A stretch of 64,000 nucleotides of DNA from contig OX597819.1 of the NCBI GenBank assembly GCA_951406725.2, positions 131,006,001 through 131,070,000 on the forward strand, in the 5' to 3' direction. The stretch's first letter is position 1, and each line of letters starts with the position of its first letter. Below the pieces are notes generated by a model. That model ran no database searches and had not been told where the DNA came from. It worked only from the letters and a program-made list of their open reading frames with translations. The position numbers and the translations under genes are program-made. Shown piece after piece: positions 125-62,739 of this stretch. This DNA comes from Octopus vulgaris. Its lineage: Eukaryota.

Positions 125-197
125 GCCGAAATAGCTCAGTTGGGAGAGCGTTAGACTGAAGATCTAAAGGTCCCTGGTTCAATCCCGGGTTTCGGCA
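125..197 (+). tRNA. tRNA-Phe: tRNA-Phe(GAA), intact
   Basis: 73 nt GCCGAAATAGCTCAGTTGGGAGAGCGTTAGACTGAAGATCTAAAGGTCCCTGGTTCAATCCCGGGTTTCGGCA: canonical metazoan tRNA-Phe with paired acceptor stem GCCGAAA/TTTCGGC, GAA anticodon, A and B boxes; T-run (Pol III terminator) at ~214-225. Confidence 0.97.
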
Positions 198-23754: not shown

Positions 23755-25018
23755 ATGCGTTACGTGGCCGCTTATCTCCTTGCCACCCTTGGGGGTGTGA
23801 AACAACCAACTGAAGCTGATTTGGAGAAGATTTTAGGCAGCGTTGGTATTGAGGCCGAAGCCAGTAAAATGAAGAAAGTCATCTCACAGCTTAAGGACAA
23901 AGACCCAGCCACTCTCATTAAAGAAGGTAATTTTGGCACTGCCACGTTTATTTGTTGTTGATATTTGCACGTAAAAAGCACCCACTACACTCACGGAGTG
24001 GTTGGCGTTAGGAAGGGCATCCAGCCGTAGAAACATTACCAGATCAAACTGGGCCTGGTGCAACCTTCTGGCTTCCCAGACCCCAGTTGAACCGTCCAAC
24101 CCATCCTAGCATGGAAAGCGGACGCTAAACGATGATGATGATGATGATGATTGGCCCTCCTTTCGTTTTGTCTTGCAAGTCACTTGGTAACTTGTGTTGG
24201 CGCAAAGAAAAGCACCCGATACACACTGTAAAAAGATGGTCGTTAAGTGTCGCATAGAGAATTGTGTTGCCCTGTGACGACAGTTCTCTGGCCGGCCAGA
24301 TCCTGTCAAACTGTCCCAACCCATGGCAGCATAAAAAAACAGACATTAAATGATTATGACTTTTCTTTCTGTTTCTTCTTTCAATTGGGGGTGGATGAGT
24401 CAACATTACTTGTGTGTGCAAACAAAAGTTGGCCGTAAAACTTGACCTGCCTTCGAGTTGCTTGAGCTGCTTGGAGGATAAGGTATTAAACGTGTAACAA
24501 ACTGGAGTTGGCTTGCACAAAGGTCAGTTTGATGAAGGCTGGTTTAGGAGGGGAGGGTCTTTACTCAAAGAGAGATGAAAGTTATGATGGATGTGCAGGT
24601 TATGCCCTTCCACTAAAAGAGCCTACAGAATTCGTTGCAGTGATGTAGTATGCTGGTGTTTTGTTGATTCTATTTCTTGACTGCAGTTCCTTAGAAATAT
24701 TGTGTCTGGATTTGATTGGGTTTTCTTTTTCTCTTCTTTCACAGGTCAACTGAAGCTTGCATCTGTCCCAAGTGGAGGTGGTGCTGCTGTTTCTGCTGCA
24801 CCCGCTGCCTCTGGTGCAGCACCTGCAGAGAAAGCTGAAGGTGAGAGACTAAAACATTCCCTCTTCATTTTTCTTTTCTTTTTACTTTTTAATTTCCTTC
24901 TGTATTTTTCTAATATTTATATTTTTTCCTTTAATTCTCCATTACAGAAAAGAAAGAAGAGAAGAAAGAGGAGTCAGAAGAATCAGATGATGACATGGGC
25001 TTTGGTCTCTTTGACTAA
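23755..25018 (+). CDS. RPLP2: 60S acidic ribosomal protein P2, 112 aa; join(23755..23926,24745..24840,24948..25018)
   Basis: MRYVAAYLLATLGG...LEKILGSVGIEAE...IKEG / QLKLASVPSGGGAAVSAAPAASGAAPAEKAE / EKKEEKKEESEESDDDMGFGLFD*. GT-AG introns keep frame (172+96+71=339 nt); ATTAAA at 25043. Confidence 0.97.
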
Positions 25019-35809: not shown

Positions 35810-37306
35810 TAAAAAGGAGTAAAGTTAATGAAATAAAGCAATAGATTCATGAAAGAAGCAAAAGAGAAGGACCAGCAAGCTGTAGAGGGAGGACATCTAA
35901 TAGGGTTAGGGTTAAATGTGTTGAAATATATTGGGGAGATGAGAAGGAATAACTTCTGAGGTGGGAAAATACTGTTGCATATTTGATGACTTGGGTTAAA
36001 AAAAAACAAAACATATTTTGTCCTTTTTTTAAGACTAAGTACCAAGCATTAAAGATACACTCAAAGCCTCACAGAAGTACTTTCAGATCAAGCCTGACAC
36101 TTGAGAAATGCAAGCACAAGGACTGCCCTGCCCTGCATAGCTGCACCAACAGAGGTGCCACCTCCTACAAACAGAACGGGTTTGTAAGAGCACAAAGAAG
36201 ACAGGAGCTGAGCAGGTCCAGAGCTGACTCTTGGTCTCCATTCACAGCAATGAACCTTCCAGAACCTTCCAAGCCTGCATCCAGCCTCATCAGCCACAGA
36301 TGTATCATGACCCATCTTCTCCTGCATGATGTCCTTGGTCATCATCAACAGTAAATATTACTAGATTTGATATACCCATTTCTTTACTACCCACAAGGGG
36401 CTAAACACAGAGAGGACAAATGGATTAAGTCAATTATATCGACCCCAGTGCGTAACTGGTACCTATTTAATCGACCCCGAAAGGATGAAAGGCAAAGTCG
36501 ACCTCGGTGGAATTCGAACTCAGAACGTAGCGGCAGACAAAATACCGCTAAGCATTTCACCCGGCATGCTAACGTTTCTGCCAGCTCGCCACCCTAAAGA
36601 CAGATGAAATACCTATTTCTTTACTACCCACAAGGGGCTAAACACAGAGGGGACAAACAAGGACAGACAAACAGATTAAGTCGATTATAATCGACCCCAC
36701 TGCGTAACTGGTACTTATTTAATCGACCCCGAAAGGATGAAAGGCAAAGTCGACCTCAGCGGAATTTGAACTCAGAACGTAGCGGCAGACGAAACACCAC
36801 TAAGCATTTCGCCCGGCATGCTAACGTTTCTGCCAGCTCGCCACCCTAAAGACAGATGAAATACCACTAAGCATTTTGCCTAGCATGCTAACCATCCTCC
36901 CAGTTCACACAGCTTTACTTCCGATTGTAATATTAAAAAAGTAAATTTTAAGCAGCAAGCTTAGTGATTAGCTTTCACTTCAAAACATTATAGAGTTAGT
37001 TGAATTCCTGGCTGAATAAATGCAGGTAAGCAGAGTCAATTGATTATGGGGCATGATTGACATTATAACTTCCCCAGTGGATCTCTGTTCAGCATCTAAT
37101 AAAATGTCAACAACTGCTTCTCATTAAAATAAAACATTTATCAACCAGATCCAGGTCATTACTGCTTATAAGCAAAGCAACATTTAAGCATTAAACTGTA
37201 ATTGATATTCAACTATTAATTAGTAATTAAAGCAAGCATATATTATTTTGAAATAAATTTACTGCAACATAAACAATATCCATTAATCTGTTTCAGGTTT
37301 TTCAGA

Positions 37307-38356
37307 ATGAATCTTGAAACCAGGCGGGACATTTTGCGTTGTTATTACGCATCAAGGAATTCTCCTGTTGCTGCCCTTCGTTTATACAAAAAAGAAAAGG
37401 GATTAAAGCATGACCCTTGTGACCCAACGACTGTTACTAAACTTGTTAAACGTTTCGAAGAAACTTACACTCTCATGGATAAACCGAAATCTGGTCGCAA
37501 ATCATTGGCGGACGAACGGAGAAGCCTGATTGATGATGCAAAAACCTATCTGCAAACAACATCCATACGTGCCATTGCTGCAGCTACTGGAATTCCAAAA
37601 TCATCAGTTTACCGTTTACTGAGAAACGATCCTGAGTTGTATCCTTATAAAATGTCCCTGGTAGAAGAGCTGAATGAGTGGGACAAACCCAAACGCCTTA
37701 CCTTTGCCAATTGGCTTCAGGAAAATCTCCATTTGATCTCACGCATTCTTTGGAGTGATGAAGCCCACTTTTATCTTGATGGGAGAATTATTCGCCATAA
37801 CTGCAGAATCTGGAGTCGACACAAAACAGAAAATGATTTAGAACTGTCTTTGAATGGTCCCAGACTAACTCTGTGGATGGGATTTACATCTGAATTTGCG
37901 CTGGAACCATTCATCTTTGATGAAAATGAACACATCAATGCTGATAATTATCTCGCTATGTTGCAACAGCATGTGCGACCTCAACTTGTTAGAAAAGGTA
38001 AACTTTCTCAGACAATTTTCATGCAAGATGATGCACCTGCACATTTTGCACCAGCCATAAAAGATTTTCTCGTTAACACTTTCACAGGGGAACGCGTGAT
38101 CTCTCCCGGCTGTTCTAATGAATGGCCACCACGATCCCCTGACATAATACCAGTAGACTATTGGTTTTGGGGGTGTCTGAAATCTAAAATTTTTCATAAT
38201 AACTGTCCAACAACTCTGTTTGAAATGAAATGCAAAATCATAGAAGCATGCAATAATTTCACTATAGAGGACTTTTCAGCTGCTGTTGCTAATCTACCAA
38301 AGCGTGTTGAGCACTTAATACAAGCTGCAGGTGGGAATATTGATCATATTGTATAG
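37307..38356 (+). CDS. Intact Tc1/mariner-superfamily transposase, 349 aa, DD42D (rosa/DD41D-like)
   Basis: N-terminal HTH region (TVTKLVKRFEET..KPKSGRK..SIRAIAAATGIPKSSVYRLL); catalytic WSDEAHF, FMQDDAPAH, WPPRSPDIIPVDYWFWG; 42 residues between the second and third Asp; no stops. Confidence 0.92.
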   Translation: MNLETRRDILRCYYASRNSPVAALRLYKKEKGLKHDPCDPTTVTKLVKRFEETYTLMDKPKSGRKSLADERRSLIDDAKTYLQTTSIRAIAAATGIPKSSVYRLLRNDPELYPYKMSLVEELNEWDKPKRLTFANWLQENLHLISRILWSDEAHFYLDGRIIRHNCRIWSRHKTENDLELSLNGPRLTLWMGFTSEFALEPFIFDENEHINADNYLAMLQQHVRPQLVRKGKLSQTIFMQDDAPAHFAPAIKDFLVNTFTGERVISPGCSNEWPPRSPDIIPVDYWFWGCLKSKIFHNNCPTTLFEMKCKIIEACNNFTIEDFSAAVANLPKRVEHLIQAAGGNIDHIV

Positions 38357-44800: not shown

Positions 44801-44838
44801 GTTTATTTCCGTACAATTCATTTAAAAAAAAAAACGAC

Positions 44839-45149
44839 GGTACTATTTAAGAAGAGTGATCCCGGTGCGCGCACTCGCGCAAGCTAGTCGTGACTAATCG
44901 ATCCTACAACGACTACCAAACTACCTAAAATGACTATAACAAATGTTCATACAAATTCGGTTAAAAGTTATTAGAAGTTTTTTGATAAACTTTTGGTACC
45001 CCCATCATAACTTAGACGGAGCTTTTTTTTTTAAACAAATAGGGTTTTTTTTTTATAGGATAGGTAGTCATTTTAGGATCGACTAATCACGTCTAGCTAG
45101 CGCACATGCGCGAGTGCGCGCACCGGGGCTACTCTTCTTAACTAGTACC
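44839..45149. mobile_element. Merlin-like MITE
   Basis: GGTACTA...TAGTACC TIRs; flanks AAAACGAC / AAAAAGAC (7 of 8 match). Confidence 0.8.
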
Positions 45150-45321
45150 AAAAAGACAAAAAATATATATATTCGAAACATTAAACATGCAAGTATAATT
45201 TTATTCCAAACACATTTTAAAATAATTTCAATTTTACAAAAAAAAAACTAATTTTATTTAGTGACAATCAAGTCTCGTTTTAGCATCAACAAAGTCTCGT
45301 TTTCCATGAGACTTCCCAGCC

Positions 45322-45402
45322 TATATATATTTCGAAACTTGGTCGCTTCTGCCTTTATTCTTCTTCTGCGGCTGAAGTCGTCGGATGCGAGGCAAAGTAA
45401 GT
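45322..45402 (+). promoter_or_regulatory. TATA-like box, pyrimidine-rich (TOP-like) start and first splice donor of the putative snoRNA host gene
   Basis: TATATATA at 45322, ~31 nt before CCTTTATTCTTCTTC (45352-45366); short CpG-rich exon; AAA|GTAAGT at 45397. Confidence 0.65.
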
Positions 45403-45492
45403 GGACTTCCATTCAGTTATTATCCGTTATTCAGAATACAAATTATGAAATTATACTGTTACCTTTATTTGTGTAGCAGAAATACCGCATTT

Positions 45493-45785
45493 GGTACTAC
45501 TAGCGAACAGTGGTCCCGGTGCGCGCACACGCGTAGTCACGCATCCGCGCTAGCTAGTCGTGACTAGTCGATCCTATAACGACTAACTAGCAAAGTAGAT
45601 TAAACACAAAACTAATACTTTTTTTACACAAAAGTAAATAATTTTTGTTAAAAAAAGTATATAAAACACAAAAATACAAAGTAAATATTTTTTAAAACAA
45701 AGTAATTAACACAAAGTAAGGATCGACTAGTCATGACTAGCTGGCGCGTGTGCGCGCACCGGGACCACTGTTCGCTAGTAGTACC
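45493..45785. mobile_element. Merlin-like MITE with perfect 8-bp TSD
   Basis: CCGCATTT|GGTACTACTAGCGAACAGTGGTCCCGGTGCGCGCAC...GTGCGCGCACCGGGACCACTGTTCGCTAGTAGTACC|CCGCATTT. Confidence 0.92.
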
Positions 45786-47686
45786 CCGCATTTATTGTAT
45801 CTGGTAATCTGGTAATGGTAATATAAAAAGGAAAAGCCAAAAAGACTAATTCTTCGATTGATCATAGTTTTTAAAGGAACGAATGTCTGTTGAGGAATTT
45901 TAAAATAGTAAAAAGAATCTTTGGGAAACCTCAACGAATCTCCCTTATCCTCTTCTTTCATGTACATTACATTTACGTAGATCTTGTCTTATAAAATATT
46001 GGTGTCGTGTTCCAAGAGGAATCTATATCGTTTATATTATTTGAATTTCGGACGGTAACCTTTGCAGCAAACATCTAAGCGATCGCATAACTACAGTAAA
46101 GGTTTATGTCTGTTTCTATAATTTTAAATAAAACCGATCTTCCATAGGAAAGGGAGAAGAAAATTATTTTAAAAAACAGCAAGTTTTAATTCAGTACAAA
46201 CTCAGATCATGGGTTGTTGTCTGATGGTGTTTCACCGAAAACGGATTGTGTGCGGGTATTCGGCGGCGCACATGGCCCAGACGTGACCCCAATCTCACCC
46301 TTTTTTTTTTTTAACTGAAACCACGTTTTCGGCTAAAGAGATTCCGATTCTGAAAAAAGAAAAGAAATTCGCGAAAATTGCAAGTTAGGAATTTAAAATC
46401 TCACCCCCATTTCTTTATTGACTTTTTTTGAGAAATTTCTGTCGGCGAAATACGTGGAAAAATACAGATTATGATTCTGGAAAGAAAAAATTGTGAAATT
46501 TCAATTTTTCGATAAAAAGGCGGAGCTGATCGTCCCTACCCTGTCGGTCTTGTTTTTTTCGCTTTCAGGGTCAACGATTCTAAGGGAAGCCAACACGATA
46601 TTGGCACTCCTGGAGAAGAGCGGTCCCGGTGCGTGTTTTAGAGCAAGTTGTTTTACACCTATTACACTTTTTTTGTGACCAGGTCAAACGCTTTAGTTTG
46701 AAAGATTACCGTTAACAAAACAAAAAAACCCAACCTGCTGGATGTTAAGTATCCATTCTAATTGTTGGAGCGAATACAATGGAATGACTGACATTGATGT
46801 CGAACCACGGTTATTCCCGTTTCAAAGTCAACCATTAAGAAAACTTAATGGCCCTTTAGTAACTCAGTTGAATTGTGCTGGAAAATGTAACACGCAGGTT
46901 ATGATGGGAGTACGCAAAATTTCCCCCGAGTACTTCTTTAAGTTTCCGTCGGTACTAAAGGGTCGGGTCCACTCGAAAGTAACACCAATTTTGTGTGCAT
47001 ATTCGTTTTCTACGCATTTTTTTACATTTAGTAGGCTTTTTTTCGCGACTAAGTCATAAACTGTATATTGGACTGGGTACAAAGTGCAAGGGCAATAAAT
47101 CCGAATATCTTGGGACAAATTAAAAGGTTTTTAATTGCAGATTCTACCTGGAAGAGAAAATGACGACCAGCGGTCATTGCTACATTGCAGGAGGCAGCGA
47201 TTTATAGAAATCACGGATCTTTATAAATTTTCCAAGCTCTTTTGTACACAAAGTTAAGATGGAATTAAAAGCCTCTATCGGGAATGTTTGAACTGTACCA
47301 AGGAGAAAAATCATTCCAACATGAGCCATCAAAGGGGACACCTGAAATAGTGTTGACTAATTTGTATTCTAAGCAGTTTATTGGAACATTTAATAAAAAA
47401 AATTGTACTTTGTTGGTTCTGGGAGAATGACACTTGCAACATTGGCTATTTGAGTTAAAAGAAGGTTTTCTAAGTCAACAAATGCACACTTTAAGAGCCT
47501 TTTCTCAATCGATTTGGGTTTATGGTGTCTAACTGTGCTACACAAAATTTTTAGGAGTTTACAAAAGCTGTTGAGGACCGAGTCTGTCTCGATTCTTTCA
47601 TTTTTGATAAACTCCAACATGTGAACTCTAATTGAATTATTCAGTATTCTGTTACTGCTGCTATATATATATATATATATATATAT

Positions 47687-47906
47687 GGTACTACTAGCGT
47701 ACAGTGGTCCCGGTGCGCGCATCCGCGGCAGCTAGTCGTAAGTAGTCGATCCTACGACTACTTAGCAAAGTAAATAAAACAATAATTTTTTTACACAAAG
47801 TAAATAATTTTTGTTAAAGTATTTATCACACAAAAACAAAGGATCGACTAGTCATGAATAGCTAGAGCGAGTGCGCGCACCGGGACCACTGTTCTCCAGT
47901 AGTGCC
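47687..47906. mobile_element. Merlin-like MITE
   Basis: Same TIRs; TSD GCTATATA, with the left copy expanded into (TA)n. Confidence 0.85.
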
Positions 47907-48545
47907 GCTATATATTAGCAAAAAAAAAAAAAAAAAGGGTGTTTCGGATATAGTGATGGTATCCTATCGGTTTCTAATCCACTCTGCTGCCAGTGTGCCT
48001 TGAAGGTTGCCAGCATTTTGGAAGTGGCCAGTTTCTTTGTGTCCAAGATCAGAGCAGTTGGTGACCTGTGATGGAAATGTATTGATGAGAACTATGGCTG
48101 AGCAGCGGCTCTGAATTTTCATAACCCTGATGTGTGTCCTCTATATCTCTTGGATTGAACCCACTTGTCTGCTATATCTCGGTCATTGTGAAGAGGTAAT
48201 CGAACAGACTGACTCAAAATGCCAAGAACTTGAAAGCTGCCATTGTTGGTTTGGGAAATGGCAATGGAGTTGGTAAGTTGGCTTCGGAACTGTGTTAAGG
48301 ATTTAGTCCCACTGAGTGGATGTTGTTGTTGGCTGGTGTCCTTGTACTGTAGCTTAAGGGTAAAATAGGTAGGCAGAGCACATTGTATCATCACCATTTT
48401 AACGTCCTCTTTCCATGCTGGTATGGGTTGGACAAGAGCTAGCGAGTCAGAAGACTGTCCAGTTAACATTTCCCCTTGCTTTCCAAGTGTATTATTGGCC
48501 TTGTAAACGGATGCATTGCTCTTCATGCAGACCATATTGCTAGCT

Positions 48546-48774
48546 GGGACTACTTGAGAACGGTGGTCCTGGTGCGAGCATCCGCGCTAGCTAGTCATGA
48601 CTAGTCGATCCTTACTTAGTGTTTTTGTGTTATTTACTTTAACAAAAATTATTTACTCTGTAAAAAAAGTTTATTTTGTGTTTTATTTACTTTGCTGGGT
48701 AGTCGTTGTAGGATCGACTAGCTAGCGCGGATGTGGGAGTGCGCGCACCAGGACCACTGTTCTCAAGTAGTACG
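48546..48774. mobile_element. Merlin-like MITE with degenerate ends
   Basis: GGGACTACTTGAGAACGGTGGTCCTGGTGCG...CGCACCAGGACCACTGTTCTCAAGTAGTAC. Confidence 0.8.
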
Positions 48775-49324
48775 TTGCTTGTAGTTAACTGCAAAAGCAT
48801 GTCTGGTCTAGATTCATTTGTTTATAGTTTTCTGTGTAACCATGTCTAAGGTCGACTTTTTTATTGTAAGTTAAATGGAAACAAAAAATTGGGCTTTCTA
48901 GCTCAAATAGTAGCTAAGATATAACTTGAAATTTCAAAAGGTCAATTACTCACCAAATACAAGGTGATTGGTTTCAATATACCCTTTCATTACTCTATTC
49001 ATTTTGAGATGCTCTGTGTTTCTTTCAATTAATTTTAAATATAACAAAGAATTTAGTAAAATAACTAAGTTACCATTAAGTTAGTGTTAGGAACATAAAT
49101 TGTGACTAAGGTTTGGTGAAAGATTTTAATTCAAAACTTATGAAAACAAGACATTTGTATTACAGAGCCAAGGCCGGGTTGGTAACGAAAGGGTTAATAA
49201 CTTCCTTAATTTTACAAATGAAAGCATGAAATTTTGATACAACATAAATGACATTATGGAAATTAATTATTTAACCGTTTTCCTCTTTTTCCAGATTTTA
49301 TGTGCTCACGGATCTGAGAGATTC

Positions 49325-49900
49325 ATGGACAAGTACAGCACTCAGCAATGCATCCAGGTGGCAAAATTCTTCTACCAAAATCGGGGGTCGATAATTCAGA
49401 CCCAGGAGCATACTGTCGACACGTGCAGGTGAGAGATGCACCAGGTGAGGAAGTGATTAAAGCAAGGAACAGAAGCGGGAATCGTCGCAATGTCAAGTGA
49501 TGAGACAAGCGAACAATCCCATGACTAGTTCAGATTTTTTCTTGTGGGGATACCTGAAAGAGAGGGTTTACATCAAGGAACGGTAGCCGATCTGGGTAAG
49601 GATACATTTAGACCCTTTTAAAATCTGCCAAATTTGTTCAATGATGGGCCTAGTCCAAGCTTCAGAACAAGGGAAGCAATCACCTGTTTTTGGGGTGGAT
49701 GAATCTGTCCCTCCAGGCTCACATAGTTTTGCAGCTTCAGACTTCCATCTCTTTGGCTCAATAAGAGACACTGAGAGGTGAACATTATTATGGTGGTGAT
49801 CAAAGAGCGAAAAACTATTATAAGGGAATTAGATATGTTACCACCCTGTGGAGTTTTATGAAATTGGATTATATACCCTCATTCATAGGTGTAATACTGC
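49325..49900 (+). pseudogene. Decayed Tc1/mariner transposase fragments
   Basis: MDKYSTQQCIQVAKFFYQNRGSIIQTQ (rosa-like N-terminus), DFFLWGYLKERVY near 49533-49572, and SDFHLFGS (mariner-like) near 49737-49760. Confidence 0.65.
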
Positions 49901-50402
49901 CATTGAAAGGGACTGTTCAAAAGTAGGAAAGTGAACCTGTGATAGTTACAATAGTTGTACAATTTGTTTCTTTGTGTTCTTTATTCTTTTTTATATAATT
50001 ATGCCAATTGCATTACTTTCTGACTCACTAATGGTTCTTGATAGGTGAATGTTAAATTTGGAATTGTCGACTGTGCTGCCCCCAGGTTATTATAAGATGA
50101 AGTTGCAATTACATTTGTAGATTTGCCTGTATACTGTATTGAATGATGGTTTTCTGGTTATTATTCTAATTGAGATCATTTTAAACTCTGAGGACTATAT
50201 TTCTAGCAAAAAATACTCGTAATGCACTTTGGTTGAGAACTTAATGGCCTGTGACATATTTTTCTTTTGAATTTGGTGTTTGGAATAGAACATGTTTATA
50301 GTAATCTATTGTGAAATTATACGTTGTCATCAACACCACCACCACCATCATTGTCACCTTTGGTCATACCCTTCCCGAATTATGTTTTAACTTTAATGTA
50401 CT

Positions 50403-50465
50403 AATTGTGATGAATAAGATATCGCCCCAGTCTGAATTGTGTGAATGGTTTCAAGTATCATTGTG
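50403..50465 (+). pseudogene. SNORD31: Diverged SNORD31-like copy, terminal box D not recognisable
   Basis: GTGATGA(50407)ATAAGATATCGCCCCAGT-CTGA(50432). Confidence 0.65.
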
Positions 50466-50811
50466 TTCAGGTTGGTGTCCATGTTCTTAGAACTGTAGTT
50501 TGAAATAAGGCTGCTTTGTCTCTGGCAATTTGAGAGGGAATTGGCCGATTCCTTTTGCAGTCAAATTGTCTTTTTAAAGCTGAATACTTTCGAAACTTTT
50601 TGATTGTGCTCAAATCAGCTTCTTTTTATCAACTATAAAGTTTAGCTTTGTTCAAAAGAGACATTGCCTACAAATTGGTATTTTTAAATTGTGTGTCCCA
50701 GCAACTGCATAAGAGAGAATATATTTTAATCTATTTTTGCAGATTCAAAAGACACTCTGGCTTCTCCGTGGAAAAGTTGCTGGAATGCTCTGGATGAGCA
50801 TTGGAAACCTA

Positions 50812-51319
50812 GGTACTAGTCACGTAGACTGGACCCGGTGCGCGCAGACGTGCTAGCCAGTCGTGGGTGGTCGATCCTACAGTGGCTTGCGGATGCAAAT
50901 GAGCTGGTTTGCGATCAACATAAAATACTATTTTACAGAATAAAGTAAATAATTTTTAAAACTTGAATAATAATTTTTTTTTACACAAAAGACTGTTTTG
51001 AGAATATTCTTAAACATCTTTCAGAATGGTATACATTTGAATATATAATTTTCAAAAAATTACATATGTTTGTGTAAAAAAAATTATTATTTAAGTTTAA
51101 AAAATTATTTACTTTGGTAAAAAAATATTATCAATATTAATTAATTTTATTCTGTAAAATAGTATTTTATGTTGATCGCAAACAAATATGTATTGCGCAC
51201 GTGCGATACAAGTACGTATGCAATCAGCTCATTTGCTTATGCAAGTCGCTGTAGGATCGACTACCTACAACTGGCTAGCGCATCTGTGTGCGCCGGGTCC
51301 AGTCTCTGTGACTAGTACC
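50812..51319. mobile_element. Longer Merlin-like MITE subfamily (~508 bp, largely palindromic)
   Basis: GGTACTAGTCAC.../...GTGACTAGTACC; flanks GGAAACCTA / GGAAATCTG (7 of 9 match). Confidence 0.85.
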
Positions 51320-52284
51320 GGAAATCTGTTTCTGATTTTGGTTTATGTGGAGGCAGTGGATATGGTACTGGGAATGAGTCAAACCAAAGACTGCATACGA
51401 TGAACAGAATATGGCTCCTCACTCGACATAGGCTGATTAGTGATTTCAGACTACGAGACGCACGACGGTCAGGATAATGAAGGTAAGGATATTGACCAGA
51501 TGGCGGTGCGATTGGGAGTTCCCTATGGGGAACTTCCTGTAAATATAGGAAGGAAAAAATATCAAGTTATGAGAATCTAGCATTGATTTATTCAGCTGTA
51601 CATTGCTGAAATGATGGTGTTACCTGATGAGGTAGATCTTGTGCTCTTGCATAATTTTAATCAGCTTTTTAATGAACTTTTCCTGAGATGTGTTTTCAAT
51701 GGTACGGTATGTTACAATTACATTGGTAAAACTTGGAAAAAATTTAGAGTTTACTGAACAAACTGATATTGGAAGTACCATAAAAGGTTACGGGTGCTTC
51801 TGTATACTCTTTACTCTCTTTTTGCTCTTTTACTTGTTTCAGTCATTTGACTGCGGCCATGCTAGAGCACCGCCTTTAGTCGAGCAAATCGACCCCGGGA
51901 CTTATTCTTTTGTAAGCTCAGTACTTATTCTATGGGTCTCTATTGCCAAACCGCTAAGTGACGGGGACGTAAACACCAGCATCGGTTGTCAAGCAATGCT
52001 AGGGGGACAAACACAGACACACACACACACACATATATATACGACAGTCTTCTTTCAGTTTCCGTCTACCAAATCCACTCACAAGGCATTGGTCGGCCTG
52101 GGGCTATAGCAGAAGACACTTGCCCAAGATGCCACGCAGTGGGACTGAACCCCAAACCATGTGGTTGGTTAGCAAGCTACTTACCACACAGCCACTCCTG
52201 TGCCTGGTAAATTTCATGCAAGCATGCATTTAGTAAAGTCTGCCTGGTCAAATACCCTAATATTGGATAGTTGGCAATTAATGG

Positions 52285-52354
52285 ACTAATTGTGATGAAT
52301 AAGGTATCGCCCCAGTCTGAATTGTGTGGCTGAATCGGTTTAAGTGATTTTAGT
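52285..52354 (+). ncRNA. SNORD31: Diverged SNORD31/U31 homologue (box D reads GTGA)
   Basis: Stem ACTAA/TTAGT; box C GTGATGA at 52292; guide GTATCGCCCCAGT plus D' CTGA at 52317. Confidence 0.75.
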
Positions 52355-53000
52355 AAACGCTTGTCTTTCATCTTTTACTTGTTTCAGTCATTGGACTGCA
52401 ACCATTCTGTGACATTGCCTTGAATTTTAGTTGAATGTATTGAACCCAGTACTTTGTTTTTTTTTTTTAAGGCTTGGTATTTATTCTATTGGTCTCTTTT
52501 GTCAAGTAGTGGTTGAGTGGACGAACAAAGGCACAATGGACTTCTTTCAGTTTCTGTCTACCAGGTCTATTCAAAGGCTTTGGTCAACCCAAGGTTAGAA
52601 GACATTTGCCCATGGTGCCACACAGTGGGACTGAACTCTGAACTACACTTCTTACTACACAGCCATGCCCATGGGCATTAGTTTCTGCTCCTATCAACAT
52701 TGATTTCTGCTTTTCACCTTTCTTGAGTCCTAATAAAACTAGCAAGGGGCAAGGAGTTGATTTAACCCTTTCATTGCCATATTTCTACTGAAATAGGGGA
52801 GAATTTAGTAAAGGAGCTGGTGTTAGGAATGAAACTTACCATGAAATTGTGATGGGAGATTTTTCAAATCAACTTTATGAAAAGGAGGTTGCCATACCGG
52901 AGGAGGTCCCAAGTGGTGTCAAGAAGGGTTAATCCAATAGATGTGCTTCTGTTAAAAATTGTTTGAAACCCTGTTAGGTTTTATACTTCATCTTGGTAGT

Positions 53001-53071
53001 GTACTAAAGTGATGACAATGATACCGCCCCAGTCTGAATTTTGTGCGGAAACGGTACAACTGATTTAGTAC
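53001..53071 (+). ncRNA. SNORD31: SNORD31/U31 (snR67-like) box C/D snoRNA, copy 1 of 7 identical
   Basis: Stem GTACTAAA/TTTAGTAC, box C GTGATGA, guide ATACCGCCCCAGT plus D' CTGA (as recalled for vertebrate U31), box D CTGA. Guide is complementary to 28S ACUGGGGCGGUA (P-loop Gm). Confidence 0.92.
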
Positions 53072-53206
53072 ATAATTGCAATTGTCAGCTCTTAGACTTG
53101 AGTCCAGATTTTATTTTATTTCACCCAGCACATGAAGAATCTAAGTCTCTTAACTTTGCCATTGGTCTGCTATCCAGAAATAGTTTCAATTTATAAAATG
53201 TGTTAA

Positions 53207-53974
53207 CCCTTTCGTTAATATATTTCTGACCAAAATACACCCCTCTTGAGTTTCAATTAAATTCTAAAATAATCATGAATCTAGGCTTGTTTCATTAAAT
53301 AACTAACTTTTATTAACTTTATTAATGTGATATTTGGAACATAATTAAAGAAAGGGTTCTTAATTAATTCTATTGCATAACTTTTGTCTCAAAGTGACTT
53401 TAATAACAGGTAAATTGAGCAAAAGGTAAAAATATTAAAATTTTGTTTAAACATCACCATAGAAAATGAATTATCAGCTAATATTCAAATGGGTATGCAA
53501 CAAAATTTTAGGAAAGTCTGTGGCTTGGTCCAGTTTCTTCAGAAAGATCACCGAAAGAAACAGTTTTTAAATTTTCATTCCATTCAGGTGCCAATTCATT
53601 TTCTTTATCGCTGTCGGAGTTCTCAGATTCATTATCAAATACCACGTGCTTTTTTTTAGTCATAGAGTTAGATTTATCAAGGTCTTCAGTAGAAAATCCT
53701 TCGAATTCTGACTCGCTGCTTGATAGAATGAAATTCGTATCCATTTTTTGTCAGAATTACAAATTTCGGAAAAAAATCTCCCGAAATTCACGGAATTAAA
53801 ATTACACTTCGATCGTTGTACAAAACTAGATGAACTATTTACGAAATATAATTACATGTTTTCACGAATGTACTAAAGAGATTTGCTCTGATATTCTCAT
53901 TTAAATATGGATAGGTAAATGCGGGCGGGTATGAACCAAAATTTTTTTCGGGCGGCGGTTTGGTAACGAATGGG
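53207..53974 (-). mobile_element. Non-autonomous piggyBac-like element with an acidic transposase N-terminal remnant
   Basis: TTAA|CCCTTTCGTTA...GGTAACGAATGGG|TTAA; minus-strand ORF MDTNFILSSSESEFEGFS...; related truncated copy at ~55233-56203. Confidence 0.75.
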
Positions 53975-54017
53975 TTAAGCTACAAATGCTCTCTGATCAC
54001 TTTAGCATCTTGGTAGT

Positions 54018-54088
54018 GTACTAAAGTGATGACAATGATACCGCCCCAGTCTGAATTTTGTGCGGAAACGGTACAACTGATTTAGTAC
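54018..54088 (+). ncRNA. SNORD31: SNORD31/U31 copy 2
   Basis: Identical to 53001-53071. Confidence 0.92.
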
Positions 54089-55121
54089 ATAATTGCAATT
54101 GTCAGCTCTTAGACTTGAGTCCAGATTTTATTTTATTTCACCCAGCACATGAAGAATCTAAGTCTCTTAGCTTTGTCATTGGTCTGCTATCCAAAAATAG
54201 TTTTAATTTACAAAATCTGTTAAGGTTATTGAATTGTGTTCAGTGTTTTGTACAAGTTGAGCTATTGGATGGAAAGTGTCTTGCATAGTGTGGGTTGTAT
54301 TTTTTTTTGTCCTTTTTCCTGTACATAAATGGGTTGGAGCTGAAATAGCTTTGGCATTACTTGGCCAAAGTTTAATCTCTAATCCTTTTTGCTGTTTCTC
54401 ATAGTGTAGAGTTTGGGTCATCAGCAAAAATTGTTGATGCATTGAATAAATTCTTGTTGACTCTTGCATTAGTTAGTTAATTTTTTGGCTCAAAAAGCAA
54501 AAAGCAGGGCCATGTAGGGGCACATGGAGTTACGTACAGGGTAGTGTTCATGTAAAGTGTTCAGGCCACTTGAGGTCGAGGGAGACTTTGAGCCGAGCGT
54601 CTCTTTAGTCAAGTAGTGGTGAGTGGACGAACAAAGGCACAATGGGCTTCTTTCAGTTTCTGTCTACCAAGTATACTCATAAGGCTTTGGTCAACCCAAG
54701 GCTAGTAGAAGACATTTGCCCATGGTTCCACACAGTGGGACTGAACTCTGAACTACACTTCTTACTACACAGCCATGCCCATGGGCATTGGTTTCTGCCC
54801 CTCTGATAATTCCTATCAAGATTGATTTCTGCTTTTCACCTTTCTTGAGTCCTAATAAAACTAGCAGGAGGCAAGGAGTTGATTTAACCCTTTCATTGCC
54901 ATATTTCTACTGAAATAGGGGAGAATTTAGTAAAGGAGCTGGTGTTAGGAATGAAACTTACCATGAAATTGTGATGGGAGATTTTTCAGATAACTTTATG
55001 AAAAGGAGGTTGCCATACCGGAGGAGGTCCCAAGTGGTGTCAAGAAGGGTTAATCCGATAAATGTGTTTGTGTTAAAAATTGTTTGAAACCCTGTTAGGT
55101 TTTATACTTCATCTTGGTAGT

Positions 55122-55192
55122 GTACTAAAGTGATGACAATGATACCGCCCCAGTCTGAATTTTGTGCGGAAACGGTACAACTGATTTAGTAC
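55122..55192 (+). ncRNA. SNORD31: SNORD31/U31 copy 3
   Basis: Identical to 53001-53071. Confidence 0.92.
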
Positions 55193-56246
55193 ATAATTGC
55201 AATTGTCAGCTCTTAGACTTGAGTCCAGATTTTGTTTCAATTAATTTCTAACATAATCCTAAATTTAGTCTGGTTTCATTAAACAACTATTACTTTTTTA
55301 TTCATCAATATATTAATGTGATTTTTGGAAGATAATTTAATGAAATGTTCTCAACCAATTCTATACTATAATTTTTGTCACAAAGTGACTCTAATTGCAG
55401 ATAGATACAGGTAAATTCAACAAAATATAAAATTATTAGAATTTTGTTCAAACATCGCTATAGAAAATGGGTTATTAGCTAATATTCAATTGGGTATACA
55501 ACAAAATTTTACGATAGAATTTGTTATTCTGGGTAACTTTCTGATACTCATAATAATATTTATGGCAAAATAGTCTTAATTTCATTTAAGGTTGTGGGAA
55601 ACCACAAACTATCCTTTCTTTTGCTTTGTTTACATTTAGCGTAATGATTTCAAATAGGCTCATTCGAAAAAGTAAAAAGAAATATCTAAGGCTTTACTCT
55701 CCTGGGAAAGTCTGTGGCTTGGACTAGTTTCTTCAGAAAAATCACCGAAAGGAACAGTTTTAAATTTTCACTCCATTCAGGTGCCAATTCATTTTCTTTA
55801 TCGCTGTCGGAGCTCTTGGATTCACTGTTTTCACTTTCGGAAAATGAAACATCAGATTCATTATCAAATACCACATGCTTTTTTTTTTTTTTATCATAGT
55901 TAGATTTATCAAGGTCTTCAAGAGAAAATCCTTCGAATTCTGACTCGCTGCTTGATTTTATGAAATTCGTATCCATTTTTTGTCAGAATTACAAATTTTG
56001 AAAACACTATAGGAACAAATTTCGGAAAGAAATCTCCCAAAATTCACGGAATTAAAGTTACACTTCAATCATTGTACAAAACTGTAGATGAACTGTTTAT
56101 GAAGTATAATCACGTGTTTTCACGAATGTACTAAAGAGATTTGCTCTGATATTCTCATTTAAATATGAATATGTATATTTGGGCGGTTTGGTAGCGAAAA
56201 AGGTTAAACTACAAATGTTCTCTAATCAGTTTAGCGTCTTGGTAGT

Positions 56247-56317
56247 GTACTAAAGTGATGACAATGATACCGCCCCAGTCTGAATTTTGTGCGGAAACGG
56301 TACAACTGATTTAGTAC
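56247..56317 (+). ncRNA. SNORD31: SNORD31/U31 copy 4
   Basis: Identical to 53001-53071. Confidence 0.92.
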
Positions 56318-57341
56318 ATAATTGCAATTGTCAGCTCTTAGACTTGAGTCCAGATTTTATTTTATTTCACCCAGCACATGAAGAATCTAAGTCTCTTAGC
56401 TTTGTCATTGGTCTGCTATCCAGAAATAGTTTCAATTTACAAAATCTGTTAAGGTTATTGAATTGTGTTCAGTGTTTTGTACAAGTTGAGCTATTGGATG
56501 GAAAGTGTCTTGCATAGTGTGGGTTGCATTTTTTTTTGTCCTTTTTCCTGTACATAAAAGGGTTGGAGCTGAAATAGCTTTGGCATTACTTGGCCTAAGA
56601 TTAATCTCTAATCCTTTTTGCTGTTTCTCATAGTGTAGAGTTTGGGTCATCAGCAAAAATTGTTGATGCATTGAATAAATTCTTGTTGACTCTTGCAAGG
56701 CCATGTAGGGGCACACGGAGTTACGTACAGGGTGGTGTTCAGGCCACTTGAGGTCAAGGGAGACTTTGAACCGAGCGGTTGTCGGCATTTTCACCATCTC
56801 GTGAACTTTTTTTGTTTTAAGGCTTGGTATTTATTCTATTGGTCTCTTTAGTCAAGTAGTGGTGAGTGGACGAACAAAGGCACAATGGACTTCTTTCAGT
56901 TTCTGTCTACCAGGTCTATTCAAAGGCTTTGGTCAACCCAAGGTTAGAAGACATTTGCCCATGGTGCCACACAGTGGGACTGAACTCTGAACTACACTTC
57001 TTACTACACAGCCATGCCCATGGGCATTAGTTTCTGCTCCTATCAACATTGATTTCTGCTAAAAATTGTTTGAAACCCTGTTAGGTTTTATACTTCACTG
57101 TCAGCTTTGTACACCAGTGATATTGGGATCCGTTGGTCCTGATTTGTAGAGCGATTACGCATTCCGTCGTTGAATTCAGCTTTTGTTAGTAATGTGGTGG
57201 ACCTTCCAAAATCTTTGGATTGAATTTTTTTTAAGTGGGATACATGTTGGTAGAAAACAGGCTCACTTGTCTTTGCACTTTGAAGTAGTGGCAAACTTTC
57301 AAACTACAAATGGTCTCTGATCAGTTTAGCGTCTTGGTAGT

Positions 57342-57412
57342 GTACTAAAGTGATGACAATGATACCGCCCCAGTCTGAATTTTGTGCGGAAACGGTACAA
57401 CTGATTTAGTAC
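57342..57412 (+). ncRNA. SNORD31: SNORD31/U31 copy 5
   Basis: Identical to 53001-53071. Confidence 0.92.
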
Positions 57413-58817
57413 ATAATTGGAATTGTCAGCTCTTAGACTTGAGTCCAGATTTTATTTTATTTCACCCAGCACATGAAGAATCTAAGTCTCTTAGCTTTGC
57501 CATTGGTCTGCTATCCAGAAATAGTTTTAATTTACAAAATCTGTTAAGGTTATTGAATTGTGTTCAGTGTTTTGTACAAGTTGAGCTTTTGGATGGAAAG
57601 TGTCTTGCATAGTGTGGGTTGTATTTTTTTTTTTTGGTCCTTTTTCCTGTACATAAAAGGGTTGGAGCTGAAATAATTTTGGTATTACTTGGCCTAAGAT
57701 TAATCTCTAATCCTTTTTGCTGTTTCTCATAGTGTAGAGTTTGGGTCATCAGCAAAAGTTGTTGATGCATTGAATAAATTCTTGTTGACTCTTGCATTAG
57801 ATTTAATACTGATTTTGCAGTAATTGTGGTGATATCCCAGTCTGTTTAGTGAGTTCATAGTCTAATGATTTGAACCCAGAACTTTTTTTTTTTTAAGGCT
57901 TGGTATTTATTCTATTGGTCTCTTTTGTCAAGTGGTGGTGAGTGGACAAGCAAAAGTACAATGGACTTCTTTCAGCTTCTGTCTACCAAGTGTACTCATA
58001 AGGCTTTGGTCAACCCAAGGCTAGAAGACATTTTCCCATGGTGCCACACAGTGGGACTGAACTCTGAACTACACAGCCATGCCCATGGGCATTGGTTTCT
58101 GCCCCTCTGATAAGTCCTGTCAAGATTGATTTCTGCTTTTCACCTTTCTTGAGTCCTAATAAAACTAGTATGAGGCAAGGAGTTGATTTAACCCTTTCAG
58201 TGCCATATTTCTACTGAAATAGGGAAGAATTTAGTAAAAGAGTTCGTGTTAGGAATGAAACTTACCATGGAATTGTGATGGAAGATTTTTCAGATAACTT
58301 TTGAGAAAAGGAGGTTGACAGAGGCGCAGGAGTGGCTGTGTAGTAAGTAGCTTGCTAACCAACCACATGGTTCCGGGTTCAGTCCCACTGCGTGGCATCT
58401 TGGGCAAGTGTCTTCTGCTATAGCCCCGGGCCGACCAATGCCTTGTGAGTGGATTTGGTAGACGGAAACTGAAAGAAGCCTGTCGTATATATATATAAGT
58501 TTGTGTGTCTGTGTTTTTTCCCTCTAGCATTGCTTGACAACCGATGCTGGTGTGTTTCCGTCCCCGTCAATTAGCGATTCGGCAAAAGAGACCGATAGAA
58601 TAAGTACTGGGCTTACAAAAGAATAAGTCCCGGGGTCTATTTGCTCGACTAAAGGCGGTGCTCCAGCATGGCCGCAGTCGAATAACTGAAACAAGTAAAG
58701 GAGTAAGAGTATACCGGAGGAGGTCCCAAGTGGTGTCAAGAAGGGTTAATCCAATAAATGTGTTTGTGTTAAAAATTGTTTGAAACCCTGTTAGGTTTTA
58801 TACTTCATCTTGGTAGT

Positions 58818-58888
58818 GTACTAAAGTGATGACAATGATACCGCCCCAGTCTGAATTTTGTGCGGAAACGGTACAACTGATTTAGTAC
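58818..58888 (+). ncRNA. SNORD31: SNORD31/U31 copy 6
   Basis: Identical to 53001-53071. Confidence 0.92.
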
Positions 58889-59290
58889 ATAATTGCAATT
58901 GCCAGCTCTTAGACTTGAGTCCAGATTTTATTTTATTTCACCCAGCACATGAAGAATCTAAGTCTCTTAGCTTTGCCATTGGTCTGCTATCCAGAAATAG
59001 TTTTAATTTACAAAATCTGTTAAGGTTATTGAATTGTGTTCAGTGTTTTGTACAAGTTGAGCTATTGGATGGAGAGTGTCTTGCATAGTGTGGGTTGCAT
59101 TTTTTTCCTGTGCATGAAAGGGTTGGAGCTGAAATAATTTTGGCATTACTTGGCCTAAGATTAATCTCTAATCCTTTTTCTTGTTTCTCATAGTGTAGAG
59201 TTTGGGTCTTCAGCAAAAGTTGTTGATGCATTGAATAAATTCTTGTTGACTCTTGCATTAGATTTAATACTGATTTTGCAGTAATTGTGG

Positions 59291-60598
59291 TATAAGAACA
59301 GGTTCATATGCCGTCGTATCGTATAGGGAATACAATTGCACGCGATCCCATTCTTAATGAGTTATTCCATGCCGTACAATACATACAGTAACAATAAAAC
59401 ATAAGTGGATTGACGACTAGTCTTCTGTTTGGCGATAAACCTTATTTATTTTACAATCGTGTTGATGTTGGGAGTTTGTAAGCGTTAGCAGGTTTTGTGT
59501 CTGTGTGTTCGTGAGTGTGACAGAGCGAAAGGTGAATGTGATTGACATAGAAAAGTACCTGATGGTGGAGGCGGCAAAGATAGTAGACTCTCCGTGTTGA
59601 GTGTACATTTAGCATCGTAGCTAGTTGTAGCAGGAACAATTGTATATCATTTGGTTGAGCAGCGCTGTCTCTGAAGCCAGTTCTTACAAGAACTAAAACT
59701 AAAGACAGGTAATTGATTTACTGTTTATGAGGTACACGAAGTGTAAGAGTTCAATATCAAGATGTTGTGTCTCGGAGCTGAGATTAGTTGAATCACTTGT
59801 GTTTATCTTTCTCTTGATATGAACATTCTTTCAGATATATTTACTGTAGCCGTTTTCCCGTGGTGAGATTTTTACCTAACCGCTTGAGTTGAATCTGTAG
59901 TTATCTTGTGTACAAGTTAAATCTTCGTAGATAGAGACGATGTTGGCGATGACGTTGTGTCTACTGCTTGGTTTTTGCAGCGTCTTCATTATATATTCTG
60001 CTTGGTTAGTTTTCTCTTGATATAGATATTCTGCAACTGTTTTTCCGTGGTGAGATTTTCACACTAACCATTCATCTTATGTACAAGGTAAATCTTCGTA
60101 GATGGTTTTGCTTGGTGGTCGCCTGCCTTTCGAACTGGAACATGTTTGAGTATGCTCTGTGTGGTCAGAGGTTTAGTCCCCACCAGGACTAGAAACCAAA
60201 GACGAACTCTGTGGTCAGAGGTCAGTTCTGAGAAGAACTAGAAACCTAAGACGAAAAGTGTCTGAGAAACACTCTCTTATATACAGGTTAGGTGGCTCAA
60301 ACGAACTTCAGAAATGGAAAGCTGTGATTGGCTGTTTGGAACAATGGCGCGAAAATAAGCGGAGACAAATTGCGTCACGTGACAACCAGCAGTGCGAACC
60401 GTGCAGAGACCGCTCGTGTCACATGTCAACCAGTGGTGCGAACTAAGTAGAGACAAATCGCGTCACGTGTCAACCAAACGGATTAGTGTTTACAACAAAC
60501 GTTAAACTAGCTGAAGATGTTTGTAATCTCGAACAAGATTATTCTTAATGCTCTTCTCAAACAGTGAAGATAGCAATGGGGGAAACGATATTGCTACA
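59291..60598 (-). mobile_element. Solo LTR (~1.3 kb) with 4-bp TSD
   Basis: Interrupts TAATTGTGGTGATATCCC (intact at 57821 and 61449). TSD GTGG at 59287-59290 and 60599-60602. Minus strand starts TGTAG and ends CTTATA (probably mutated CA); contains CCAAT, TATATAA (~60280) and AATAAA (~59445). Confidence 0.8.
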
Positions 60599-61017
60599 GT
60601 GGTGATATCCCAGTCTGTTTAGTGAGTTCATAGTCTAATGATTTGAAACCCAGTACCTTTTTTGTTTTAAGGCTTGGTATTTATTCTATTGGTCTCTTTA
60701 GTCAAGTAGTGGTGAGTGGGCATTGGTTTCTGCCCCTCTAATAAGTCCTAATAAAACTAGCAGGAGGCAAGGAGTTGATTTAACCCTTTCATTGCCATAT
60801 TTCTACTGAAATAGGGGAGAATTTAGTAAAAGAGCTGGTGTTAGGAATGAAACTTACCATGAAATTGTGATGGGAGATTTTTCAGATAACTTTATGAAAA
60901 GGAGGTTGCCATACTGGAGGAGGTCCCAAGTGGTGTCAAGAAGGGTTAATCCGATAAATGTGTTTGTGTTAAAAATTGTTTGAAACCCTGTTAGGTTTTA
61001 TGCTTCATCTTGGTAGT

Positions 61018-61088
61018 GTACTAAAGTGATGACAATGATACCGCCCCAGTCTGAATTTTGTGCGGAAACGGTACAACTGATTTAGTAC
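61018..61088 (+). ncRNA. SNORD31: SNORD31/U31 copy 7
   Basis: Identical to 53001-53071. Confidence 0.92.
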
Positions 61089-62739
61089 ATAATTGCAATT
61101 GTCAGCTCTTAGACTTGAGTCCAGATTTTATTTTATTTCACCCAGCACATGAAGAATCTAAGTCTCTTAGCTTTGTCATTGGTCTGCTATCCAGAAATAG
61201 TTTTAAATTACAAAATGTGTTCAGTGTTTTGTACAAGTTGAGCTATTGGATGGAACGTGGGTTGCATTTTTTTCCTGTGCATGAAAGGGTTGGAGCTGAA
61301 ATAATTTTGGCATTAGTTGGCCTAAGATTAATCTCTAATCCTTTTTCTTGTTTCTCATAGTGTAAGGTTTGGGTCATCAGCAAAAGTTGTTGATGCATTG
61401 AATAAATTCTTGTTGACTCTTGCATTAGATTTAATACTGATTTTGCAGTAATTGTGGTGATATCCCAGTCTGTTTAGTGAGTTCATAGTCTAATGATATC
61501 GATGTGCTCTTAATTGCCGTACATTCTTTAGATCTATTGCTTTGTGTTGCATGTTTTGTCTAATTTACTTTACTGTTTAGTAAAAAAAAATGTGAACTGT
61601 CAATGGCTTGGCTGAAAATACAAGTCTAGCAGTCCAAATGCATTATAGATATTTCTAAAAAGGAATTCAATAGAATATTCATCCTGTTTCTGCCACAGTT
61701 ATGACTTGTATTCTAATTATATTTGCTCCTCTTCTGAATGTAACATGTAATGAAAGTCTGGAGCCAACAGAAGTTTCCTTTTCATGTATATATCTTATAC
61801 ATTTTTCTTCTTTTTTCCCCCAAACCACAGGTTCAAAACTGACAGCAGATGATGGTATTGAGCATCCATTTTAAACTATTATTTGAGGCATTCTCAAGTG
61901 CTTGATATAATTCCAAATATACAAGATCTTCATGGTGATGACACACATAAGGAATTTTCTACTGGACCAGAATTCTATACACTCTGTAGAAGAAATGAAT
62001 AAAAGTTCTTCAAAACCAACAAAATTACTTTTCTTTTTTTTTTTTTCTTTTTTTTAACTACATATTGTAGATATTGAATAAATGTTCATCATATAATCAT
62101 GAGGATTTAAAAATCATATTTTATATTCTATATGCATGTTTGATGTGTCAGTCTTTTGTAGTGATGATTATATTTTAAAAAATATGCTTTTGTTGCAGAG
62201 AAAATAGCATTATTGATCATTTTTTTTTCTATCTTCATCAGAACAAATTGCATCTTAATTTATGGGATTAACAGCAGTGTGAAAAGATTTGGGTTTTTTA
62301 GATATTCTTTGTGCTCGCATAGGAGGCCAAAGGGGTTTCTGCAGCAAGTCAATAACAAAATTAGATTAGAAAAGTCACATCCACATACCAAATGACAAAT
62401 AAATTTCATGAAATAATGCAAAACAATTGAACAGGTATGTCAAGCAACAAATGAATTTGTTGCAATCTTGTTTTACAAACATTTTCAGGATGGAAAAAGT
62501 CGTTGGTTTACTGCTCTGGTTCCTTTTTATTTCGATTCATTTTTAAACTGTTTTAGTTTAGTCTTTGGAACCTGCATTATGAAATGTGGATAGGGTTCAG
62601 ATCTCAATAAAACCAGAGGATTTGATTTTCTTTTGCTCCTTTCAGAGATATTGAATGGACTGGTTATAAATATTGTGGGTGTTAACCATCTATAAAATTT
62701 CTTTATAAGGACAAAGGGGAAGCCTTAGAAATAATTATA

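Follow-up and report, generated by a model that had tools for sequence, protein, structure and literature searches.

A tandem array of SNORD31 copies within one intron of an apparently non-coding host gene in Octopus vulgaris

Background

In animals, small nucleolar RNAs (snoRNAs) of the box C/D class located in introns are normally trimmed by exonucleases from the debranched lariat, and mostly one is carried per intron (PMC11028025). In Drosophila the C/D snoRNAs were found one per intron and the H/ACA snoRNAs in clusters (PMC3089462). The C/D snoRNA SNORD31 (U31) corresponds to yeast snR67, which guides Gm2619, equivalent to Gm2251 of E. coli (PMC11121408). Human SNHG1 hosts SNORD31 together with seven other snoRNAs (PMC7154078). 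Drosophila Uhg1 is listed with four U31 copies among 16 snoRNA rows, and U31 is assigned there to 28S-Gm3152 (PMC11014333 Table S6). Here we analyzed a stretch of 64,000 nucleotides of Octopus vulgaris (contig OX597819.1, positions 131,006,001 to 131,070,000; hereafter the window), in which eight intact SNORD31 copies lie within a single intron of a spliced host gene. A preliminary description, made from the sequence of the window, had proposed a UHG-like host gene with amplified U31.

Results

SNORD31 copies and their target

The guide pattern, with up to two mismatches allowed, occurred nine times in the window and not once in 100 shuffled sequences. Seven occurrences belong to copies here named A1 to A7 (Table 1), whose 71-nt sequences were a single distinct sequence, as described before; the identity extends beyond the snoRNA over a block of 88 nt. 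Scored with the Rfam covariance model of SNORD31 (RF00089, gathering cut-off 40 bits), eight of the nine copies reached the cut-off, the A copies with 44.3 bits each and a diverged copy, variant B, with a slightly higher score. The assignment to SNORD31/U31 was thereby confirmed.

Each A copy is composed of box C, a 12-nt guide, box D', a degenerate box C', box D and a terminal stem; box C, box D and the stem were present in 7/7 copies. The stem had been given as 8 bp and measured 10 bp, including one G-U pair. Variant B carries a C-to-T change in the guide and an altered box D. The ninth copy, here named C, scored 38.3 bits, and in the alignment its boxes C' and D are gone, so that it is probably a pseudogene. 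Two older variants had been reported at 50403 and 52285: both are present, but only the second passes the Rfam cut-off. The repeat unit also carries decayed relics of variant B, of which there are three: at about 57822, about 61450 and, interrupted by an insertion, 59281/60599. Folding z-scores of the whole snoRNA (0.03, -1.11 and 0.37) were uninformative, as expected for C/D RNAs.

Searches of the organism's own 2.8-Gb genome returned seven places at the DNA level and nine with the family model, all within the array locus; as the best candidates only were scored, these counts are floors, and among those candidates neither search placed a SNORD31 outside this locus.

All that an initial target search turned up were three diverged fragments of the large subunit (LSU) rRNA; full-length 28S copies were then obtained by a family search. 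The guide of the A copies pairs over 12 bp without mismatch with all four full-length 28S copies of the organism's own genome, in agreement with the LSU target predicted before. The guide of variant B pairs with the same rRNA over 13 bp with one G-U pair. By the fifth-base rule the target is the second G of a GGGG run in 28S, which we take to be the G of the LSU P-loop (human Gm4166/4196). A second guide with a pairing of at least 10 bp in the organism's 18S or 28S was found neither in A nor in B.

Full ribosomal DNA (rDNA) units (L020-L027; contigs C20, C1 and C5) have an 18S of ~2.64 kb, a 28S of ~4.9 kb and 64-65% G+C. Three further LSU fragments (L017-L019) are diverged; L017 shares 84% identity with the array rDNA copies.

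The host gene

Assembled contigs of four presumed-RNA runs from four studies (X3, X6, X7 and X15) were mapped on 45000-62600. Their GT..AG joints support the presumption that these runs are RNA. Rare isoforms drop out of such contigs, and the listing covered 15 of the 115 joints and 24 of the 1288 loose ends.

The joints 49595>50743 and 51482>61831 were found in three of the four runs (X3, X6 and X7, from three studies), the latter at depths of 260.8, 409.2 and 47.2. An alternative donor joint, 49428>50743, was present in X6; X15 contained neither main joint, a gap in contigs that proves nothing. The spliced contigs seen all placed variant B and A1 to A7, the eight intact SNORD31 copies, inside one GT..AG intron of 10,348 nt; the copies lie between 742 nt and 9.5 kb away from the acceptor in use. 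Within a stretch free of short interspersed elements (SINEs), 60960-62460, for which the joints and loose ends were listed in full, the end of exon 3 was the sole upstream partner of the last exon in the contigs of one run, X6.

In the three exon models, assuming no further upstream exons, the longest open reading frame (ORF) starting with ATG had 71 codons and the longest stop-free stretch 75; a 35-codon frame in exon 2 had no Pfam match. The host gene is apparently non-coding. Exon 2 resembles what we take to be a decayed mariner-type relic.

The preliminary description held up in its spliced non-coding host, its terminal exon and its sequence signals, since TATA box, pyrimidine-rich start, GTAAGT donor and AATAAA are all in place. 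It was not supported for the UHG-like layout, and because eight intact copies share one intron in the spliced contigs seen, the rise in U31 dosage inferred with it is not automatic but needs internal cutting or nested splicing.

The TATA box lies 30 nt upstream of an imperfect pyrimidine start at 45353, and the donor at 45397 is the strongest in 45200-49295. The combination of TATA, TCT-like start and donor, a pattern drawn up post hoc, has its sole plus-strand match of the window here, and the candidate promoter with first exon (45323-45396) is single-copy. A joint from exon 1 (45353-45396) to the rest of the host was absent from the joints and loose ends listed; the X15 contig of exon 2 carries 16 unplaced letters upstream of that exon. 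Judged by its sequence, the host start is probably of the terminal oligopyrimidine (TOP) type. Three occurrences of a short motif, two forward and one reversed, lie immediately upstream of the TATA box (45270-45314), against only one in the rest of the window; these may be factor-binding sites.

Other non-coding candidates in the window were discarded. No snoRNA family besides SNORD31 exceeded its Rfam cut-off there. C/D-like candidates at 48082 and 51624 had no rRNA pairing of at least 10 bp, and a G+C-rich stretch (46205-46305) gave a folding z-score of -0.14. Weak Rfam matches were obtained for SNORA12 (E 0.12) and for microRNA models, the latter falling on miniature inverted-repeat transposable elements (MITEs). 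A hairpin MITE-like family is present at 44837-45150, 45491-45790, 47685-47906, 48544-48773 and 50810-51320, the last inside the exon 3 region, and accounts for the weak microRNA-model matches.

Structure of the array

In the basic unit of ~1.1 kb, variant B or a relic of it is combined with a SINE fragment, an element flanked by TTAA, an A copy and a tail. A two-unit block (52492-54599) is repeated at 54599-56842, and the breakpoints 53203 and 55234 coincide with an interspersed element starting at a TTAA site. The tails of the five full-tail copies are 1.6-5.7% apart. An ancestral unit of this composition would have multiplied by unequal crossing-over, for which TTAA-flanked elements may have provided some of the breakpoints; unequal crossing-over appears to be the simplest cause.

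The SINE of unit A6 and the 1.3-kb dispersed repeat presumably either inserted at a later time or were retained in individual units. The latter has 42 genome matches listed and appears to be solo-LTR-like (long terminal repeat). A SINE pair in opposite orientation (51822-52205 and 58322-58706) lies in the same intron, and a duplex between the two could loop out B and A1-A5; such a duplex might be a substrate for editing or cleavage.

Furthermore, the A copies were compared column by column. Among the five full-tail copies 0/71 core columns were variable, compared with 26/335 tail columns (Fisher p 0.006; random-placement p 0.005). With six copies, 8/128 flank columns were variable against 0/71 in the core (p 0.027).

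The array in other individuals

Contig depth, for which single-copy sequences served as baselines, is a rough guide and not a copy number. In X12 (organism A, same species label) the snoRNA core reached a depth of 70.7 against 8.6-11 for single-copy sequence (~6-8-fold), and in X18 (organism D, other species label) 28.8 against 5.6-7.3 (~4-5-fold). The read-depth check proposed for the copy number thus came out in favor of an array. In the intronic RNA of X6 the core had a depth of 43.3 against 5.0; in X14 the core was without cover, a gap that proves nothing. Other individuals carry several copies, possibly fewer in organism D.

Junctions that are specific to single units, namely those of A2, of A4 and of the 1.3-kb insertion, were found again in X6, X12 or X14. 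Together with the differences between units and their private insertions, this substantiates the local duplication suggested earlier. The X12 core contig differed from the window at one position, 61002, outside the snoRNA; the X18 contig shared this change and had one further. In both runs the core contig was continuous with one flank type only, which may reflect haplotype differences or pruning by the assembler.

Feature coordinates and neighbouring genes

Table 1. Features of the SNORD31 host locus (positions within the window)
Feature	Position	Strand	Remarks
Candidate promoter and first exon	45323..45396	+	TATA 45323, TCT/TOP-like start ~45353, GTAAGT donor 45397
Host exon 2	49295..49595	+	X15 contig 49295-49595; alternative donor 49428/49429
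SNORD31 copy C	50400..50459	+	Alone in intron 49596-50742, 283 nt from acceptor
Host exon 3 region	50743..51482	+	Both ends joint-supported; MITE 50812-51319 inside; loose end 51455-51480 before last exon
Single intron, eight intact SNORD31	51483..61830	+	10,348 nt, GT..AG joint in 3/4 runs
SNORD31 variant B	52286..52353	+	45.6 bits; guide 13 bp with one G-U; box D GTGA
SNORD31 copy A1	53001..53071	+	Box C 53009-53015, guide 53022-53033, D' 53034-53037, D 53060-53063, 10-bp stem
Acceptor-like polypyrimidine + CAG	53109..53128	+	Also ends at 54145, 56374, 57469, 58945, 61145; no RNA use seen
SNORD31 copy A2	54018..54088	+	Identical to A1
SNORD31 copy A3	55122..55192	+	Identical to A1; insertion ends 3' flank at 55234, without acceptor-like site
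SNORD31 copy A4	56247..56317	+	Identical to A1
SNORD31 copy A5	57342..57412	+	Identical to A1
Variant-B decayed relic	57822..57870	+	In repeat unit; also 61450-61497, split 59281-59291 + 60599-60642
SINE in unit A6	58322..58706	+	92% complementary over 386 nt to opposite-strand SINE 51822-52205
SNORD31 copy A6	58818..58888	+	Identical to A1
1.3-kb dispersed repeat	59292..60598	.	Inside B relic; 4-5-nt target duplication; both junctions in X6, one in X14
SNORD31 copy A7	61018..61088	+	Identical to A1; 742 nt from used acceptor
Terminal exon	61831..62017	+	AATAAA 61998-62003; single-copy; 3' end approximate (repeat 62018-62061 skipped)

A gene resembling that of the 60S acidic ribosomal protein P2 (23755-25003, plus strand; exons at 23755, ~24750 and ~24989) lies ~20 kb upstream from the host in the same orientation and terminates short of it. 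A joint between the two was seen in none of the data, and the first exon of the P2-like gene has a weak Pfam match to Ribosomal_60s (E 0.079). A 378-codon frame at 37220-38356 (plus strand) encodes a Tc1/mariner-type transposase with matches to DUF4817 and a helix-turn-helix domain; its catalytic motifs are, as we assume, of the Tc1/mariner type. Additionally, a tRNA gene with anticodon GAA (Phe) was found at 125-197 (plus strand, 69.8 bits).

Discussion

Release of the snoRNAs from one intron

The reading that we favor, tentatively and with less than even confidence, is that several U31 copies per transcript are freed from the excised 10.3-kb intron by internal cutting. As the genome searches placed SNORD31 nowhere else, U31 must come from this locus. 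In favor of this reading are also the joint that spans all eight copies in three of the four runs and the apparent constraint on the copies. The 10,348-nt intron would leave as one lariat, and the 10-bp terminal stem would make the loading of C/D proteins onto each copy independent of a 3' splice site close by. The copies would be separated by endonucleolytic cutting, which would open an entry for XRN2 and the exosome, and these would trim to the edges of the small nucleolar ribonucleoproteins (snoRNPs). The mature U31 would finally direct fibrillarin to the G of the 28S P-loop that is opposite the fifth base upstream from box D'. The steps after splicing are those that we infer. Loading independent of splicing, followed by internal cutting, is preferred because the copies lie so far from the acceptor and possess a long stem. 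Long external stems allow C/D assembly to proceed independently of splicing (PMC5519232), and in Xenopus intronic snoRNAs are known to be released by endonucleolytic cleavage (PMC10557570).

Since one lariat with trimming by exonucleases only cannot free eight snoRNAs, the copies likely need cutting apart. A wider formulation, held slightly more cautiously still, is that the sole guide of the P-loop G derives from a polycistronic C/D intron with eight copies per lariat, cut by an endonuclease or partly kept as an 8-9-kb multi-snoRNP RNA. To our knowledge, the polycistronic route has been described for plants, for yeast transcripts and for H/ACA clusters, but not for animal C/D arrays.

Several points weigh against release by internal cutting of functional copies. 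A conserved cleavage hairpin was not identified between the copies, and animal C/D snoRNAs are mostly found one per intron (PMC11028025, PMC3089462, PMC1821038). The cutting and the mature RNA are themselves predicted, and the joints seen were a small part of the total, in contigs from which rare isoforms are lost. The copies on which the constraint on the core was measured are related and not independent of one another; another invariant run, of 73 columns, is found just downstream of the core, a clean run of at least 71 columns occurs somewhere in 15% of random placements, and gene conversion could yield the same core identity. The comparison of core and flanks that had been proposed as a check showed less variation in the core, but selection is only mildly favored over gene conversion as its cause.

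Alternative explanations

A close rival, held with somewhat less confidence than the favored reading, is hidden or nested splicing, in which the acceptor-like site of a unit would be joined to the donor of exon 3 or of the previous unit and one snoRNA would be released per lariat, the products being short-lived or remaining within the large intron. Six of the seven A copies are followed by such a site 65 nt after box D, close to the reported optimum of ~70 nt (PMC1821038). The zone of low variation reaches ~90 nt past the snoRNA and over this site, as core and acceptor region together had 3/160 variable columns compared with 23/246 in the adjoining part (p 0.0015, post hoc). Moreover, four units contain a GTGAGT donor with a score of 5.0 in an approximate matrix. 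In X6, however, with an unspliced depth of 43 and a spliced depth of 198-409, neither 61145 nor 61360 had a joint or a loose end. The intron contains 22 acceptor-like motifs, which makes one close to a snoRNA no rarity, and all six sites go back to a single inherited event. The nearest tail donor scores only 0.7, and a recursive-splicing AG/GT motif is lacking.

Nearly as probable is that most copies are passengers, with usually one copy per intron maturing. The array would then have grown by slippage, identity would be due to recent duplication or gene conversion, and no dosage would be gained. This would suit the abundance of repeats in the intron, where SINEs and TTAA elements mark breakpoints, the dead B relics that were duplicated together with the unit, and depths that hint at a copy-number difference between the labels (~6-8 versus 4-5). 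On the other hand, the A copies are free of any substitution or break, unlike their flanks, and it is hard to see how just one among identical copies of equal strength would be loaded.

It is improbable that the trimmed intron is itself the product, kept as a long non-coding RNA with snoRNA ends (sno-lncRNA) of ~8-9 kb that is capped by the first and last snoRNP and holds six more inside. Mammalian introns with two snoRNAs do give sno-lncRNAs (PMC11028025), and the layout here likewise places multiple snoRNAs in one intron. Nevertheless, the spacers consist of transposon remnants and contain many indels, and mature U31 would still be needed from this locus, the only one found. Contig depth in the listed single-copy-like pieces was ~3.5-13.5 inside the stretch from B to A7 and 5.0-19.5 outside it, which is uninformative on this point. 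Finally, the possibility that assembly turned one or two copies into an array can practically be dismissed and is largely refuted: it would explain the perfect identity of the seven cores, but not the divergence and private insertions of the units, nor the unit-specific junctions and the several-fold core depth over unique sequence in the independent runs X6, X12, X14 and X18.

Comparison with known systems

The octopus copies share boxes C, D' and D and the 12-nt guide to the LSU P-loop with SNORD31 and yeast snR67, from which the A copies differ by the degenerate box C' and the 10-bp terminal stem. Loss of yeast snR34/52/67 also removes Um2724 (PMC11121408), whereas a second guide of at least 10 bp to 18S or 28S was not found here.

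Like human SNHG1 and Drosophila Uhg1, the locus is a spliced non-coding host of U31. As multi-copy U31 in such a host is already known from Uhg1, which has four, the amplification alone is modest news; what matters is the single-intron layout. SNHG1 and Uhg1 carry five to eight snoRNA families, whereas SNORD31 alone was found here. In UHG genes one C/D snoRNA is expected per intron, ~70 nt from the 3' splice site, an arrangement that the array does not show in the contigs seen. In view of both layout and family content we do not regard the host as a typical UHG.

Tandem copies of one C/D snoRNA that arose by local duplication are also known from DmSnR60 of Drosophila mfl. In that case every copy occupies a separate intron within the 3' untranslated region of a coding gene, at ~70 nt from the acceptor (PMC1821038), unlike the array described here. 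We found no literature report of an invertebrate intron with eight C/D guides for rRNA that belong to one family, nor of this array or any cephalopod SNORD31, in a search that left most subscription papers outside.

The apparently variable copy number makes it possible to examine if the dosage of a guide is of consequence for an rRNA methylation that is nearly universal. With several snoRNAs in one intron, the locus does have the arrangement of an intronic polycistronic cluster. More than one snoRNA per intron is also found in H/ACA clusters of Drosophila, in clusters of rice and in sno-lncRNA introns (SNORD116 region, SLERT). The animal examples in the literature consulted are H/ACA clusters or pairs that give long hybrids (PMC11028025, PMC3089462). 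In Drosophila, C/D snoRNAs are found one per intron, whereas here eight C/D copies share an intron at no less than 742 nt from the used acceptor; whichever solution holds, the locus is a compact natural test, in an invertebrate, of the rule of one C/D snoRNA per intron.

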